From an uncultured Clostridia bacterium (GTDB taxonomy: Bacteria; Bacillota; Clostridia; Christensenellales; UBA1242), in assembly GCA_944348085.1 (NCBI GenBank), contig CALVMU010000004.1:1-62971 (forward strand): DNA of 62,971 nt, read 5' to 3'. Within the stretch, counting starts at the first letter, position 1. Every line of letters begins with the position of its first letter. The position numbers and the translations under genes are program-made. Under the pieces are notes generated by a model. That model searched no databases and was not told where the DNA came from. It was given only the letters and a program-made list of their open reading frames with translations. Positions 30,490 through 44,463 of the stretch are shown piece after piece.

Positions 30490-30566
30490 CGCGGGATAGA
30501 GCAGCTCGGAAGCTCGTCGGGCTCATAACCCGAAGGTCGTTGGTTCAAATCCAACTCCCGCAACCA
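30490..30566 (+). tRNA. Initiator tRNA-fMet (anticodon CAT)
   Basis: CGCGGG...GTCGGGCTCATAACCCGAAGGTCG...CCCGCAACCA, with the C1:A72 mismatch and three G:C pairs in the anticodon stem. Near-identical in layout to E. coli tRNA-fMet. Confidence 0.92.
30522..30566 (+). repeat. attL core (3' 45 nt of tRNA-fMet)
   Basis: CTCATAACCCGAAGGTCGTTGGTTCAAATCCAACTCCCGCAACCA, identical to 44419-44463. Confidence 0.9.
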
Positions 30567-30614
30567 TTATAAATAAAGGGATGTAGCGATTTTGCCACCT
30601 TCAAAAATTGTGTT

Positions 30615-30646
30615 TTGACACCAATTTTGACACCAAAAAGGAGGTA
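30615..30646 (+). promoter_or_regulatory. Candidate arm-type integrase-binding repeats (TTGACACCA x2) or integrase 3'-end relic
   Basis: TTGACACCAATTTTGACACCAAAAAGGAGGTA matches 28 of 32 nt with 44283-44314 at the end of the int gene. Confidence 0.4.
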
Positions 30647-30678
30647 ACAAAAAGGTAGAAAAATTTCTTTATTGTTTC

Positions 30679-30710
30679 AAAAACTAGTAAATTTTACTAG
30701 TTTTTTATTT
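30679..30710 (+). terminator. Rho-independent terminator
   Basis: ACTAGTAA-att-TTACTAGT followed by a T-run. Confidence 0.55.
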
Positions 30711-30776
30711 TGCCTTTTTCTAATTATAATTGACTAAATCAAAATAATATTTTATAATACAAACAGGAGCACAATA

Positions 30777-31238
30777 ATGAAAACTTTAAAAATAAAAAAC
30801 ATTACTCTATCAGACGATGTAGAAACAAAAGAAGCAAAACAAATATACAAAGTTCAAAAATTAAAATATAGCTTATTAATCATTATACCAGTTATACTAT
30901 TTCTATGCTTTATATTTTGCTTACTTTACGAATCACAACAATATAATGAATATGCAAATTTATTTCCTGGTTTAATAAATAAATATCAAAATCCTGATTT
31001 AATAGTAACCTTTTTATGTTTAAGCATTATAACGTTTCTCATATTAATAATAAATATTGTAATATTTTTTCAAAAATTAAAACCATATAAAGAGCTAATT
31101 GAAATCGCAGAAAGAAATGATAAAATAAGGCATGAAGAAAAAATCAGAGAAATGGAAAGACAAAGATTAAGAAATGAACCAATAACAACAACATATACCA
31201 TAGAAGATATTGAAATAACAAAAAAGCAAGGCGAATAA
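30777..31238 (+). CDS. Prophage-encoded membrane protein (2 TM), opposite orientation to the rest of the element
   Basis: 153 aa with two hydrophobic helices and a charged C-tail; has its own terminator. Confidence 0.5.
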   Translation: MKTLKIKNITLSDDVETKEAKQIYKVQKLKYSLLIIIPVILFLCFIFCLLYESQQYNEYANLFPGLINKYQNPDLIVTFLCLSIITFLILIINIVIFFQKLKPYKELIEIAERNDKIRHEEKIREMERQRLRNEPITTTYTIEDIEITKKQGE

Positions 31239-31256
31239 AACGCCTTGTTTTTATTT
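31226..31256. terminator. Bidirectional rho-independent terminator
   Basis: GCAAGGCG-aataaaa-CGCCTTG(T) flanked by A- and T-runs between convergent ORFs. Confidence 0.7.
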
Positions 31257-31949
31257 TACCTTTTTCTTAAGCTTTTCATACTCAGTTTGGAGTTGCCAAA
31301 CAATATTTAAAAGTTGAGCTTTTGTCTTATCTTCAAAATACGAAAAATCATAATGTTGCTTTGGATCATAAGCAGGGGGAATATCATCCTCATTAATAGG
31401 CTCCTTCTGCTCTTCTTCCTCATCCTCAAATAATTTCTTTTTCTGATTCTGTTGCGCTTTATAATTTTTAACATATTGTCGAATTGAAAGAACAGACATA
31501 TCAGGTCGAAGAACATTGTTTTTAATATCAACCTTCAACTGATCAGTATCTACTGTTAAAAGCTCAAAAAGTTTTGACTTTGAAAAACCGAAAAATTCTT
31601 CAAGTATTACAGGCTTGTCAGTTTCTTGTTCAACAAATTTCTCATAACAACTACAAAGTCTGCTAACTGCTGTTTCATCTAATCCGAGCCCTTGCATAAT
31701 ATTTTCAAAGAACACATATTCATTTTTCTTAGTAACAAATCGATTATAATATGTAAGACTATAATTTTTAAACAACTCTCGAACTTTATAAACATAGAAA
31801 CAAAGCTCAGCAAAAGCATTTTGACCTTTTGCATATATCTTATTAATTTTCTTCAAATAATCATTTAACAATTTAATACCTTCAGAGCAATCATGATCAT
31901 AAGGTTTTAAATCAAAATCATATTCTTCAATCATTTTAAAATTTTCCAT
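31251..31949 (-). CDS. Hypothetical prophage protein (232 aa, acidic linker; possible DNA-binding N-domain)
   Basis: ORF with an overlapping start/stop with the upstream ORF; no firm motif. Confidence 0.45.
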   Translation of the reverse strand: MENFKMIEEYDFDLKPYDHDCSEGIKLLNDYLKKINKIYAKGQNAFAELCFYVYKVRELFKNYSLTYYNRFVTKKNEYVFFENIMQGLGLDETAVSRLCSCYEKFVEQETDKPVILEEFFGFSKSKLFELLTVDTDQLKVDIKNNVLRPDMSVLSIRQYVKNYKAQQNQKKKLFEDEEEEQKEPINEDDIPPAYDPKQHYDFSYFEDKTKAQLLNIVWQLQTEYEKLKKKVK

Positions 31950-32343
31950 CTTTACCTCCGCTTAACTCTTTAATTTGCTGGTCGATTATAAACATAACCG
32001 TTGGGCTATCTATATAAAGAGTGCTATAACCATTTTTCAATGTTTTAATTTCTCTATGGTTATTATCTATTTTCAAAATCAATTCTTCCACTTTTTCAAG
32101 TTCTTGTATTGCGAGTTGAGTTTTATCTCGCTGGCTTGTTTGTAATTTGCTAATCACTTTGTCTTTTTCTTCAAGTTGAGTTTCTACAACATTTTTATCA
32201 TATATATATTGCAAACAAAGTTCAATTACGCGGTCTTTTGTTAGCGTTTGCAAATATTCTCTTATTGCTTTTTCTTTCTTACTCATCATCTTCTCACTCC
32301 AGCTCTCTGGAAACTTATATATATATAGTTTAATTTCTTTCAT
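31936..32343 (-). CDS. Hypothetical prophage protein (135 aa, coiled-coil)
   Basis: ORF in the same-strand array. Confidence 0.45.
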   Translation of the reverse strand: MKEIKLYIYKFPESWSEKMMSKKEKAIREYLQTLTKDRVIELCLQYIYDKNVVETQLEEKDKVISKLQTSQRDKTQLAIQELEKVEELILKIDNNHREIKTLKNGYSTLYIDSPTVMFIIDQQIKELSGGKDGKF

Positions 32344-42495: not shown

Positions 42496-42598
42496 TTCTC
42501 TTTTCCTCCATTCTTTCTTTAAATTTAATTTCTTGCATAAATCGACTGTAACTTACTTGTCGCGCACCGATGAAAAATTTTGCCATGTGTAAAATCAT
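42476..42598 (-). CDS. Small Cro/Xis-like candidate (40 aa, not in track)
   Basis: MILHMAKFFIGARQVSYSRFMQEIKFKERM... after a GGGAGG RBS; first gene divergent from the XRE repressor. Confidence 0.3.
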   Translation of the reverse strand: MILHMAKFFIGARQVSYSRFMQEIKFKERMEEKRNEKVFG

Positions 42599-42614
42599 TT
42601 TGAACCTCCCTTCA

Positions 42615-42665
42615 ATCTAACAATTTGTTAGATTACACCTTAAGTATAACAACAAATTGTTAGAA
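42615..42665. promoter_or_regulatory. Operator palindromes of the prophage switch
   Basis: Perfect 19-bp palindrome ATCTAACAATTTGTTAGAT (42615-42633) and a related copy AACAACAAATTGTTAGA (42649-42665) between divergent genes. Confidence 0.6.
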
Positions 42666-42769
42666 TGTCAAACAAAATTATAACAAAAAATTAGATTTTT
42701 TAATTTTTTTTTATAAATATTGAAAATTTATTCATAAAATGTTATTTTACATAATAGGAGGTAAAAAAA

Positions 42770-43108
42770 ATGAGATTAAAAGAACTAAGATTAAAAAACA
42801 ATCTAACACAAGAAGATATTGCAAAAAAGATTAATAAATCTGCAGTTGCTTATGGCTATTATGAATCAGGAAGAAATGAACCCGATTTAAAAACATTACT
42901 AACACTAGCAGACTTTTATCATGTAACAATCGACTACCTTGTCGAACATGAAGTTCCTTATCTGATTGATAAGAGTGCTTGGCCAGAAAGCAAAAGAGAA
43001 TTGTTAAACATGATTGCAGAACTTGACGACTTTGAAAGCGAAAAAATAAAGGGCATTATTGTCGGCTACACACAGGCACAAAAAGAAAAACCAAAAATTA
43101 TTAACTAA
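42770..43108 (+). CDS. XRE-family HTH repressor
   Basis: MRLKELRLKNNLTQEDIAKKINKSAVAYGYYESGRNEPDLKTLLTLADFYHVTIDYL is a canonical HTH_3 fold. Confidence 0.8.
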   Translation: MRLKELRLKNNLTQEDIAKKINKSAVAYGYYESGRNEPDLKTLLTLADFYHVTIDYLVEHEVPYLIDKSAWPESKRELLNMIAELDDFESEKIKGIIVGYTQAQKEKPKIIN

Positions 43109-43318
43109 AGGAGAAATAAATGATGACATTTTATGAATATATAAAAACACAATGACGAAATTAAAAAGCATACAGAATGTATCGACACAGCACTAGAGAC
43201 ATATTTCAAAGTTAAAAACCCTTACAGCTATAATAATGAAGAATACAAAAAAGCTGAAAAGGGAGAGATAATCGAATTTGAAACAAACAAAGAAATTTTT
43301 CTTCCAAAAGAAGAAAAT

Positions 43319-44317
43319 ATGAATTATAAAAGCTACAAAAATATAAAAATAACAAAACGAAAAGACAATCGTTGGCAAGCCAGATTTTCAATTAATGGCG
43401 AAAGAAAATATATTTATGGCAATACACAAAAAGAATGTTATGAAAACTTAAAACAGGTTTTTGAAATAAAACAAATAAAAATTGAAAAAACTATAAGTTT
43501 TTACGAATTCTGGGACTGGTGGTATAAAAATCACAAAGAACCTTTTTACAAAGAAGGGACTTTAAAAAATTACAGAAGTGTTTTTAACAATCAGATAAGA
43601 CCAAATTTTCCAGATAAAAACATAAAACAAATTACAGCGCTTGAAATCAACAACTTTTTAAACAAGATGCCAAACACGAGAATGAAAGAATATACTTATC
43701 AGTTTTTAAAAGAAATTTTCAAACAAGCATACAAAGATAAAAAAGTGAAATTTGACATTTCTGACGATATCAAAAAATATCACCATAAACGAAAAGAGGG
43801 CACTGCTCTTTCAGTTGAACAAAGAAAAACAATTATTGAAAAAGCAGAAAAAACTATCTATGACATTTTTATATTTTATCTATTTACTGGATGCAGACCA
43901 AAAGAAGCTTTAATAGTAAAAGCAAATGATTTTGAAGATGGCCTGCTACACATAAAAGGAACAAAAACGGCCGGTTCTGATAGATGGATTCCAGTTTTTG
44001 AACCTATAAAAAAGTTGTACGAAAAATATAAAAATACAAAAACTGAAACTCTTTTCGGAATTTCTGACACAACGCTAAAAAGAAGACTTGCAGATTTCAA
44101 GAAAATTTGCGGATTTGATTTCAAGACGAAAGACTTAAGAACAACCTTTGCTACAATGTGCGCTGAAAAAGGAATTGCACCAAGAATAATTGCAAAATGG
44201 TTAGGGCACACAACAACTCAAACAACCAATAAATATTACATTAAAGTTCTAGACAACTTTGAAAAAGAGCAAATAAAACTGCTTGACACCACTTTTGACC
44301 CCACAAAAGAGGTATAA
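43319..44317 (+). CDS. Tyrosine-type site-specific integrase
   Basis: 332 aa with TGCRPKEAL (Arg I), a LRTTFAT...WLGHTTTQTTNKYY box II (H-x-x-R...Y), and an N-terminal SAM-like domain. Adjacent to attR. Confidence 0.85.
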   Translation: MNYKSYKNIKITKRKDNRWQARFSINGERKYIYGNTQKECYENLKQVFEIKQIKIEKTISFYEFWDWWYKNHKEPFYKEGTLKNYRSVFNNQIRPNFPDKNIKQITALEINNFLNKMPNTRMKEYTYQFLKEIFKQAYKDKKVKFDISDDIKKYHHKRKEGTALSVEQRKTIIEKAEKTIYDIFIFYLFTGCRPKEALIVKANDFEDGLLHIKGTKTAGSDRWIPVFEPIKKLYEKYKNTKTETLFGISDTTLKRRLADFKKICGFDFKTKDLRTTFATMCAEKGIAPRIIAKWLGHTTTQTTNKYYIKVLDNFEKEQIKLLDTTFDPTKEV

Positions 44318-44418
44318 TTTTAGGTAAATAAAAAAGTGCAACACAATATATTGTGCTACACTTTAAACAAAATACCATATATATTGTAGAAACACAACAG
44401 AGCAAATGCTTTGCATTT

Positions 44419-44463
44419 CTCATAACCCGAAGGTCGTTGGTTCAAATCCAACTCCCGCAACCA
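44419..44463 (+). repeat. attR core (duplicate of tRNA-fMet 3' 45 nt)
   Basis: Identical to 30522-30566; no tRNA 5' half upstream. Confidence 0.9.

Follow-up and report, generated by a model that had tools for sequence, protein, structure and literature searches.

Where filamentous phages have been studied, they influence the biofilms, virulence and immune interactions of their bacterial hosts, and to our knowledge hardly anything is known of them in Clostridia, the strict anaerobes dominating animal guts. Protein pI of the Ff phages (genome of 6.4 kb) has a C-terminal transmembrane (TM) segment and a periplasmic domain and works together with the secretin pIV; CTXphi, whose Zot protein also has a TM segment, integrates at dif by means of the host recombinases XerCD. 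Here we describe a 13.9-kb element found in the DNA of an uncultured Clostridia bacterium (contig CALVMU010000004.1, assembly GCA_944348085.1); the whole analysed stretch of 62,971 nucleotides is called the window below. The element is probably, though far from certainly, an intact integrated temperate representative of an inovirus-like lineage, combining a Zot-type assembly ATPase with a rolling-circle Rep and residing in uncultured chicken-gut Clostridia. An inovirus-like prophage had been proposed at this place by the first-pass annotation of the same DNA, and at the level of sequence analysis both gene calls and borders support this proposal. As far as the searched literature and collections show, this is the first dissected example of a big lineage of gut Clostridia with soluble Zot.

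Inovirus prophages of Enterocloster and Hungatella, 6.5–16 kb long and flanked by direct repeats, were found via a pI/Zot homologue, and secretion of Enterocloster inoviruses was shown by microscopy and quantitative PCR (Burckhardt et al. 2023, PMC10061712). In the survey of Roux et al. 2019 a cluster of pI-like proteins was accepted as genuinely inoviral only if it had one or two transmembrane domains (TMDs), N- or C-terminal, while atypical pI-like clusters were allowed to belong to “entirely separate groups of viruses”; replication and integration families of inoviruses turned out to be common to several candidate families. Another point of that survey was that the ATPase should have no significant similarity to ATPases of other types.

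Insertion site and borders

The tRNA-Met(CAT) gene at positions 30490–30566 (+) was recognized by both ARAGORN and Rfam, and direct reading of its sequence reveals the hallmarks of an initiator, namely the C1xA72 mismatch and the GGG/CCC anticodon stem. The 3' part of this tRNA-fMet, from the anticodon loop to CCA (30522–30566), is repeated without a single mismatch at 44419–44463, and this 45-bp direct repeat brackets the 13.9 kb. Roux et al. 2019 take a direct repeat of 10 bp or more as a canonical att site if it lies in a tRNA or by an integrase, and here the integrase gene ends 101 bp before attR. An empty site was registered in one metagenome-assembled genome (MAG) from GTDB (uncultured Clostridia, BRZ_BP_bin16; L010 below), the only one matched by an exact-pattern search for the joint of the tRNA with the sequence downstream of attR. 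In L010 the tRNA is intact and immediately followed by the terminator and the repeats which in the window come after attR, and the similarity of L010 to the window is ~87% upstream (gyrase region), 73% beside the tRNA and 77% downstream. Because the same tRNA is joined there to the attR-downstream sequence, the 13.9 kb represent a precise, repeat-bounded insertion. The GC content is ~0.30–0.33 within the element and 0.34–0.42 in the flanks. Thus, the predicted location of a prophage in the initiator tRNA gene between perfect 45-bp repeats was borne out by tRNA and repeat searches as well as by the empty site.

ATPase, Rep and the conserved gene block

The motifs GIPGAGKTS, LDEAQ and HRH, from which a Zot-like ATPase had been read, are all in place in an open reading frame (ORF) of 284 amino acids (aa; Table 1), and Pfam, PHROG, profile and fold searches agree on its assignment. 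It matches PF05707 with 32.6 bits against the gathering cut-off of 20.3 and phrog_197 (“Zot-like”) at 2e-14; the match to phrog_1041 (“CTXphi Zot-like”) is weak (1.6e-4). A profile built from 34 sequences of the family finds the PDB entry 2r2a at 2.5e-8, and the same structure, the N-domain of Zot from N. meningitidis, is the top Foldseek match (E 2.6e-11) of the AlphaFold (AF2) model, which has pLDDT 84. The next matches, i.e. the STIV2 B204 packaging NTPase, KaiC and RecA, are weaker (E 1e-5 to 1e-3), as would be expected for models sharing a common P-loop core. Proteins of this subfamily are 260–290 aa long and similar from end to end, including a conserved soluble C-terminal domain. Word-based and exhaustive searches, the latter with a hidden Markov model, collected 168 clusters at 90% identity; at 50% identity there are at least 122 clusters at E <= 1e-30, and 1061 if the limit is relaxed to E <= 1e-3.

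Rep is encoded 1 kb downstream of Zot, and an inovirus gene such as Rep beside pI is one of the signs used by Roux et al. 2019. The strings FFTITFD, HLH and YVKKYVEK, on which the prediction of an HUH protein was based, were found in its ORF, and the family PF23343 (REP_ORF2-G2P) is matched with 36.7 bits at a cut-off of 27.8. Both assignments, of Zot and of Rep, therefore withstood the profile searches. Residues F91, T93, T95, F96, D97, H142, H144, Y230, K233 and Y234, which belong to motif I (FxTxTFD), to the HUH metal-binding motif (HxH) and to the catalytic tyrosine motif (YxxKY), are invariant in seven relatives down to 25% identity. Of the 55 related loci, 23 carry a Rep of the PF23343 type and some others have different Rep families.

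The most structured stretch of the element is the 346-nt region 34358–34703. Folded as single-stranded DNA (ssDNA) it reaches −72.5 kcal/mol versus −31 ± 3.8 for shuffled sequences (z = −10.8). The same spot, after the gene of the Zot partner and upstream of rep where the latter was located, is the most structured one in six of eight relatives (L005, L007, L008, L011, L015 and L009, the last being the circular bajarodino virus 12) and ranks within the first four in L004 and L016, the latter of which has a different Rep family. Judging from the predicted folding, this region is a candidate for the origin and packaging signal of an ssDNA replicon. Intergenic segments 42022–42245 (z = −0.6) and 41621–41826 (z = −2.2) were also considered as origins and rejected, their structure being unremarkable.

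In the “gene V position” there is a 116-aa protein, whose 18 homologues bear neither a name nor a domain and which gave no sequence-family match in family searches. Its AF2 model (pLDDT 82) is an all-beta barrel, and the top 50 PDB matches are mostly single-stranded DNA-binding proteins (SSB), PriB, Rim1 and RPA, with a probability of about 1 for the top SSB/PriB entries, E ~1e-2 and TM-scores of 0.4–0.5. The model thus weakly suggests a candidate ssDNA-binding protein with an oligonucleotide/oligosaccharide-binding (OB) fold.

The adjacent 75-aa protein belongs to a family with 21 members in related loci. They are 52–83 aa long and have a short N-terminus with a net charge of ~+2, one TM segment, the motif G-x-[ST]-F-[VG]-E-[EQ]-x-x-x-W-F and a usually acidic tail. 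A structural-type protein of 30–90 aa with a single TMD, which Roux et al. 2019 list among inovirus features, is therefore available, and this one is the best candidate for the coat protein. By the positive-inside rule it should insert with its N-terminus inside and with no need of a signal peptide, so that its few basic residues would face the DNA and its acidic tail the exterior; its physical logic would then be that of pVIII, with the polarity of the sequence reversed. The earlier remark that no canonical coat protein is evident stands as to the canonical type, while this candidate of a non-canonical type is present. The small TM protein of L016 (878–1063) ends with the basic GKLFKKK, where most members of the family are acidic. 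The end of M13 pVIII is KLFKKF, and this likeness may be a coincidence. The predicted intrinsic terminator after the 75-aa gene was found at 40990–40978, and with the SSB-like gene before it and the terminator behind it this gene is placed as gene VIII is in Ff.

The genes of the element follow one another as a block, i.e. small TM protein, 448-like protein, 527-like protein, a slot for an adhesin, leucine-rich-repeat (LRR) or Flg_new protein, Zot, 139-like protein, structured region and Rep. According to iterative searches this block recurs, partly or as a whole, across the 55 related loci down to 26% identity of Zot, and because of that the 441/448- and 527-aa membrane proteins belong to the core rather than to the cargo. 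For the former, judging from the gene call in L001, the probable start of the 448-aa ORF is the ATG that gives 441 aa. The slot of the 646-aa protein is variable: in some relatives it is occupied by Flg_new or LRR proteins, and in the window by a candidate receptor-binding adhesin. The order of the SSB-like gene, the small TM protein, the terminator, large envelope proteins, the ATPase, the structured intergenic region and rep mirrors that of Ff, as the first-pass annotation had claimed. Scans of all ORFs of the element against Pfam, PHROGs and PADLOC detected no families of capsid, terminase or tail proteins, again in accord with that annotation, and none of relaxases, coupling proteins or conjugation/type IV secretion systems. 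No usable match in these collections was obtained for the 441/448-, 527-, 139-, 121-, 75- and 64-aa proteins and the accessory genes.

Table 1. Features of the element and its borders (window coordinates)
Feature	Position	Strand	Remarks
tRNA-fMet (CAT)	30490..30566	+	3' 45 nt (30522-30566) = attL, att-core copy from the element
Left arm	30567..30776	+	Tandem pair TTGACACCA (30615-30635), hairpin, consensus promoter (30730-30758) for the next gene
153-aa membrane protein	30777..31238	+	No family match; accessory, in none of the related loci
232-aa protein	31251..31949	-	phrog_15077 / phrog_1748; 18 of 55 loci, downstream of Rep
135-aa ORF	31936..32343	-	Small ORF
77-aa ORF	32358..32591	-	Recurs in 8 related loci
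Small-RNA module	32627..32718	+	Promoter TTGACT-17-TATAAT, ~60-nt three-way-junction hairpin RNA, T-run; antisense to main operon
112-aa basic protein	32724..33062	-	Downstream of Rep
Two-tyrosine HUH rolling-circle Rep	33077..34102	-	FFTITFD, HLH, YVKKYVEK; PF23343
Highly structured intergenic region	34358..34703	-	Candidate origin and/or packaging-signal hairpin cluster, coding (presumed packaged) strand
139-aa soluble protein	34704..35123	-	Directly after Zot; commonest Zot neighbour, 31 of 55 loci; candidate assembly partner of Zot
Zot/pI-like P-loop ATPase, 284 aa	35125..35979	-	Conserved soluble C-terminal domain, no TM segment
646-aa BspA-type LRR protein	35980..37920	-	Signal peptide and lipobox-like N-terminus
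527-aa membrane protein	37929..39512	-	N-terminal TM region; 21 of 55 loci; no family match
441/448-aa membrane protein	39512..40858	-	One N-terminal TM segment; 22 of 55 loci; no family match
26-aa very hydrophobic ORF	40848..40928	-	Similar small ORFs here in some relatives only; might be a minor virion or assembly protein
Intrinsic-terminator-like hairpin	40976..40990	-	GGGGGATTTCCCC and T-run, directly after the 75-aa gene
75-aa single-pass membrane protein	41012..41239	-	Short basic N-terminus, one TM segment (Kyte-Doolittle 2.94), TFVExxxxWF-type motif, acidic tail
116-aa all-beta protein	41255..41605	-	Predicted OB fold, most like SSB/PriB; gene V analogue candidate
64-aa strongly basic protein	41827..42021	-	In 13 related loci; DNA-binding candidate
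Three small early ORFs (45, 40, 40 aa)	42246..42598	-	Just 3' of early promoter; Cro or Xis candidates
Genetic switch	42614..42671	-	Early promoter TTGACA-17-TATACT (42671-42643), 21-bp palindrome, second operator-like copy
XRE-family helix-turn-helix repressor	42770..43108	+	Pfam and PHROG matches; divergent from leftward early promoter
Tyrosine integrase	43319..44317	+	3' end holds second tandem pair TTGACACCA / TTGACCCCA (44283-44303)
attR	44419..44463	+	Displaced original tRNA 3' part, then the tRNA's own terminator

Integrase and lysogeny switch

A tyrosine integrase adjoining attR, as proposed earlier, is confirmed by matches above threshold to PF00589 (43.8 bits versus the cut-off of 27.1), PF14659 (43.9 versus 22.6) and phrog_1 (7e-53). 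They cover its C-terminal catalytic domain and the N-terminal SAM-like one, and the catalytic residues can be recognized by eye in TGCRPKE, DLRTT, LGH and NKYY. The motif TTGACMCCA occurs four times in the window at a chance expectation of 0.9, solely as two tandem pairs with 12-bp spacing, one per arm of the att core (30615–30635 and 44283–44303). The left-arm pair lies within a stretch of ~45 bp that resembles the 3' end of the integrase gene (FDTNFDTKKEV versus LDTTFDPTKEV). Based on their placement, these pairs are candidate arm-type sites of the integrase, or else a trace of past recombination between tandem elements.

As for the XRE/Cro-like switch with a 19-bp palindromic operator in the first-pass annotation, Pfam and PHROG matches uphold the XRE repressor, while the length had to be corrected: the perfect palindrome is 21 bp long (42614–42634), and its imperfect second copy (42651–42667) lies over the early promoter.

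Occurrence in samples and relatives

The stretch carrying the element was registered in about twenty public runs, roughly half of which are chicken-gut metagenomes and none of which is of virome type. Contigs from ENA and Logan encode an identical Zot protein, the two long ones sharing the same gene set; among genomes the closest are MAGs with the label “uncultured Clostridia bacterium”. The runs (22 in number) were kept as Logan contigs with k=31, which cannot span a 45-bp repeat. Neither attP nor empty-site junctions were seen in them, the joints observed being repeats or other variants, and this absence is uninformative on excision because the contigs break at the repeat. The exact attP pattern gave no match in GTDB genomes, IMG/VR and metagenome contigs of JGI, collections from which the element itself is absent, so that this result is uninformative. 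The L011 contig breaks off within a tRNA-like repeat of 54 bp, and this is equally compatible with the integrated and the circular form. The end of the L002 contig at the start of a tRNA was considered as a sign of the excised form and rejected, being collinear with the integrated state; assemblies commonly break at conserved tRNAs.

Sequencing depth of the element relative to the host flank varies. In run X1 it is 13.5–19 for the element and 13–14 for the flank (ratio ~1), in run X2 7–11 and about 6, respectively (ratio slightly above 1), and in run X6 12–14 and 21–23; the ratio is below 1 in run X4, and in run X11 the element is mostly absent at >= 97% identity with the host flank at ~15. 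These depths reveal presence/absence and mosaic polymorphism among samples with conserved host flanks and no sign of replication. A contig of run X6 joins position 30706 to 32577, skipping 1870 bp with the genes of the 153-, 232-, 135- and 77-aa proteins, and a second joint from the same run, 30718 to 45036, maps to a paralogous copy outside attR. They may correspond either to a variant of the element that has no accessory region or to a remnant-only allele present in some strains.

A defective or domesticated prophage, unable to excise or assemble and kept for some benefit to the host such as the surface LRR protein or immunity, would account for the absence of any sign of replication, for the failure to identify an excisionase gene and for decayed related remnants at the same tRNA locus, both outside attR and in L010. 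However, all 45 bp of the att repeats are identical, the conserved core genes are without exception intact ORFs, the same Zot (in long contigs with the same gene set) was sampled several times independently, and samples with the same flanks have the element absent, partial or at lower depth, as one would expect of a recently mobile element. Perfect repeats together with undamaged core genes speak against a prophage that is old and decayed, and we consider this explanation improbable.

Relatives of Zot were registered at 50 loci in GTDB species genomes, nearly all of them gut Clostridia MAGs (chicken, rabbit, deer, rodent, Hadza/human and others), several being labelled Christensenella or Christensenellaceae. 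Cultured carriers are two mouse-gut isolates, Pumilibacter muris and P. intestinalis, with Zots of this subfamily (~35% identity), which makes them possible experimental hosts. In P. intestinalis CLA-AA-M10 (L050, L051 and L053) the relatives are on three contigs of 2.5–3.9 kb with coverage of 15x, 32x and 19x, and P. muris CLA-AA-M08 (L055) has a chromosomal Zot locus with two integrase-like genes and XRE genes. Other relatives lie beside other tRNAs and have other integrases. The same Zot block is combined with an rve (DDE) integrase in L015 and with a plasmid-type Rep_1 in L016; L075 (Logan SRR8298008, 11.5 kb) has a CRESS-type Viral_Rep with S3 helicase and an MT-A70 DNA methyltransferase and no integrase. 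Judging from such gene contents, lysogeny and replication modules are exchanged freely among the relatives, a pattern known for inoviruses from Roux et al. 2019.

Free swapping of Rep and integrase modules is a plasmid-like trait. Taken together with adhesin-type cargo (LRR_5, Flg_new), with about one copy per genome in run X1 and with the lack of any detected circular or particle form, it can be explained by an integrative rolling-circle plasmid or genomic island which forms no particle, uses the Zot-like ATPase and surface proteins for DNA export or adhesion, and is spread via other elements. An integrative plasmid with conjugation genes elsewhere was the alternative named in the first-pass annotation, and its check gave no conjugation family in any ORF; nor does the element have a relaxase, a coupling protein or a type IV secretion family. 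Moreover, the same short Zot occurs in a distant relative recovered from faeces as a circular genome. Since the ATPase, the TM protein and the membrane proteins are kept together with the SSB-like gene and the ssDNA-structured region, which is hard to explain if nothing is packaged, we give a plasmid or island little credence.

A soluble ATPase and the standing of the element

Several observations speak against an inovirus-like element able to form particles. No convincing TM segment was found in any of the 268 members of the Zot subfamily: the top Kyte-Doolittle mean over 19 residues is 1.03 for the protein of the window, and the three members that reach 1.6 do so at the extreme N-terminus, which corresponds to its first beta-strand and P-loop region. 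The missing TM tail, noted as atypical in the first-pass annotation, is therefore universal in the subfamily and not a quirk of this copy, and the one or two TMDs by which Roux et al. 2019 recognize a pI-like protein are lacking. The coat candidate is basic at its N-terminus and acidic at its C-terminus, a polarity opposite to that of Ff pVIII, and lacks a signal peptide; searches in Pfam and PHROGs assigned it to no known coat family. For an inovirus, the element is large with its 13.9 kb and has long genes, three of them encoding 441–646 aa. The structural match of the OB-fold candidate is weak, no excisionase was identified within the element, neither attP nor empty-site joints appeared in the runs, no terminal overlap and no circular contig was found among the 10–14-kb contigs of close relatives, and the depth in run X1 gave no excess in copy number.

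The same features led us to consider a virus with some other particle type that has only the ATPase and Rep in common with inoviruses. It could be, for instance, a pleomorphic membrane-derived particle, released by budding and carrying the 441/448- and 527-aa membrane proteins and the small TM protein, in which the soluble Zot-like ATPase would be the genome-loading motor. ATPases having no TM segment throughout the subfamily, two large conserved membrane proteins in the core block and the absence of a canonical coat protein fit such a virus, as do the conserved strongly basic 64-aa protein, which could condense DNA, and the next-best folds of the ATPase, which are those of genome-packaging NTPases such as STIV2 B204; separate virus groups with atypical pI-like clusters are also allowed for by Roux et al. 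2019. Nevertheless, Zot itself is by far the best match of the ATPase in both sequence and fold, the gene order from SSB to rep is that of Ff, the small single-TMD protein has the properties of an inovirus structural protein, and no membrane-fusion or capsid-like family was detected. A different particle is therefore unlikely in our opinion, though it deserves somewhat more attention than a decayed prophage or a plasmid.

Returning to the inovirus-like reading, its functional part, that the element works like an inovirus, is supported by its genes, while membership in the inoviruses is left open. Formal membership is not established because the pI-like protein is devoid of the TMD and because virions are so far only predicted. 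For a circular ssDNA genome packaged in a filamentous or rod-shaped virion and released without lysis, the support is indirect, coming from the ssDNA-structured region and the SSB-like fold. A clade of Zots lacking TM segments would have been filtered from the standard inovirus catalogue by the TMD criterion, and the near absence of the family from IMG/VR, where only one close relative is found, fits this, since the standard screen for virus catalogues demands a membrane anchor of its marker ATPase. A further proposal, to which we are attracted but which we would not bet on, is that these elements form a large unclassified lineage of ssDNA viruses of gut Clostridia with soluble Zot, where anchoring and the exit channel have been moved to the families of 441/448- and 527-aa proteins and where the coat inserts N-in with reversed polarity. 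If true, such a lineage would assemble filaments, or particles that are not filaments, in its hosts in a way of its own. If particles are made, the assembly machine must differ from the textbook pI/pIV system, and current inovirus censuses under-count gut Clostridia. Relatives in cultured P. muris and P. intestinalis make the lineage directly testable by experiment.

Proposed mechanism

From this gene set we infer excision, ssDNA replication, formation and shape of particles, identity of the coat and the holding of the TM-less ATPase at the membrane. The tyrosine integrase would recombine a core of 45 bp that exactly matches the 3' part of tRNA-fMet, using TTGACMCCA pairs as arm sites; the tRNA stays intact because the element supplies its 45-bp 3' part. 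In the lysogen the XRE repressor would shut the leftward early promoter via the 21-bp palindrome and the second operator, and upon derepression the element would excise as a circle. The two-tyrosine Rep may then nick an origin in the hairpinned intergenic region upstream of rep, so that single strands are spun off and coated by the putative OB-fold protein. The ssDNA would be passed to a membrane site composed of soluble Zot, the 441/448-aa and 527-aa membrane proteins and the 139-aa partner, and threaded out while the 75-aa single-pass protein replaces SSB as the coat. The LRR lipoprotein would serve as the adsorption protein.

Small RNA and neighbouring sequences

The RNA of ~60 nt encoded antisense to the main operon, behind a near-perfect sigma-70 promoter, is predicted to fold so that stem P1 doubles as the terminator stem and P3 has a GNRA-type loop. 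Three diverged copies of its module exist in the window: that of the prophage (32627–32718) and two chromosomal ones (44832–44925 and 45069–45175), situated just outside attR upstream of a gene of the inositol-monophosphatase family. Changes between the copies are compensatory in P1 and P3 (AGCG/CGCU versus UGUG/CACA). The module was also found in L011, L008 and L004, and its hairpin is 97% conserved where the proteins are 75–87% identical. Rfam searches gave no family and only chance-level matches at permissive thresholds. The RNA could be a countertranscript, an immunity RNA or merely a bidirectional terminator.

Just after attR, at 44453–44812, a 105-nt unit is repeated head-to-tail ~3.4 times with 94–97% identity between units. 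Each unit consists of the last ~11 nt of the tRNA (T/CCCGCAACCA), the tRNA terminator and a 59-nt spacer, which faintly resembles a degraded tRNA (D-arm-like GGAGCGACAGCGGAA and GTCGGG). The array is also present in the empty-site genome L010 as ~4 units, one of which has no terminator. ARAGORN finds no tRNA in the array, and Rfam at permissive thresholds gives only chance-level matches; it may have arisen by duplication of a pseudo-tRNA or represent integration scars. Further outside attR, the 3' end of the 112-aa gene recurs with 80% identity at 44923–45032 and is joined there to a copy (45032–45099, 96%) of the start region of the 77-aa gene and of the promoter, and in L010 a 90-bp copy of the left arm of the element, 90% identical, lies beyond the repeat array (5934–6024). 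Because remnants of older related elements are found at 44813–45227 of the window and in L010, the tRNA locus can be regarded as an integration hot spot. The segment 44813–45940, which includes the gene of the inositol-phosphatase family (45228–45953), has no counterpart in L010. The window start (1–72) cuts a second tRNA (Rfam, 62.8 bits), and the host flank contains a 2122-aa ORF on the minus strand (52809–59177).

Comparison with known systems

The element shares with Ff phages (M13/fd/f1) the circular order of rep, the ssDNA-binding protein gene, a small coat gene with a terminator, large envelope/adsorption proteins, Zot/pI and a hairpinned intergenic region, as well as the rolling-circle HUH Rep and the lack of capsid and tail genes. 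In contrast to Ff, its ATPase is soluble and followed by a 139-aa partner, no secretin is encoded (the host being labelled Clostridia), the coat candidate lacks a signal peptide and is charged the other way round, and the element is temperate, having an integrase and a repressor, and more than twice as long (13.9 versus 6.4 kb). Temperate phages of the CTXphi type are similar to it in having a repressor, chromosomal integration and a Zot ATPase, but the element has a tyrosine integrase of its own and a tRNA att site. Plectroviruses (Spiroplasma SpV1 and the Acholeplasma MV-L1 group) are linked to it solely via the name of the Rep family PF23343, “REP_ORF2-G2P”, which refers to the inovirus/plectrovirus replication proteins ORF2/G2P, and their genomes are not among the tblastn matches of Zot or Rep.

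Inoviruses of Enterocloster and Hungatella are likewise prophages of gut bacteria of the Clostridia class with direct-repeat flanks, a likeness that concerns description rather than sequence. Unlike the present lineage, they were found by Inovirus Detector, whose pI models are curated for TMD, and their hosts are Lachnospiraceae, whereas the lineage of the element is found in Christensenellales-type MAGs and Pumilibacter.

The only GenBank phages retrieved by tblastn with Zot and Rep are “bajarodino” and “Dulem” viruses and a single “Inoviridae sp.”. Rodents and lemurs, or their faeces, are the sources of the bajarodino and Dulem records, of which the inspected ones are small, circular and deposited as Inoviridae. 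Bajarodino virus 12 (PQ006185.1), for which the searched literature contains no publication, and the Dulem viruses are the closest annotated relatives for Zot (32% identity over 78% of the protein) and Rep (24–30%). Bajarodino virus 12 differs from the element in its size of 9.8 kb, in being a free circle from faeces and in that similarity is detectable only in Zot, integrase and repressor. At the same time it resembles the element in its short TM-less Zot of 266 aa, in the acidic partner that is followed by a structured region, and in having an integrase, a repressor and large proteins anchored by TM segments, and it is the sole sign that the wider group includes a free circular form.

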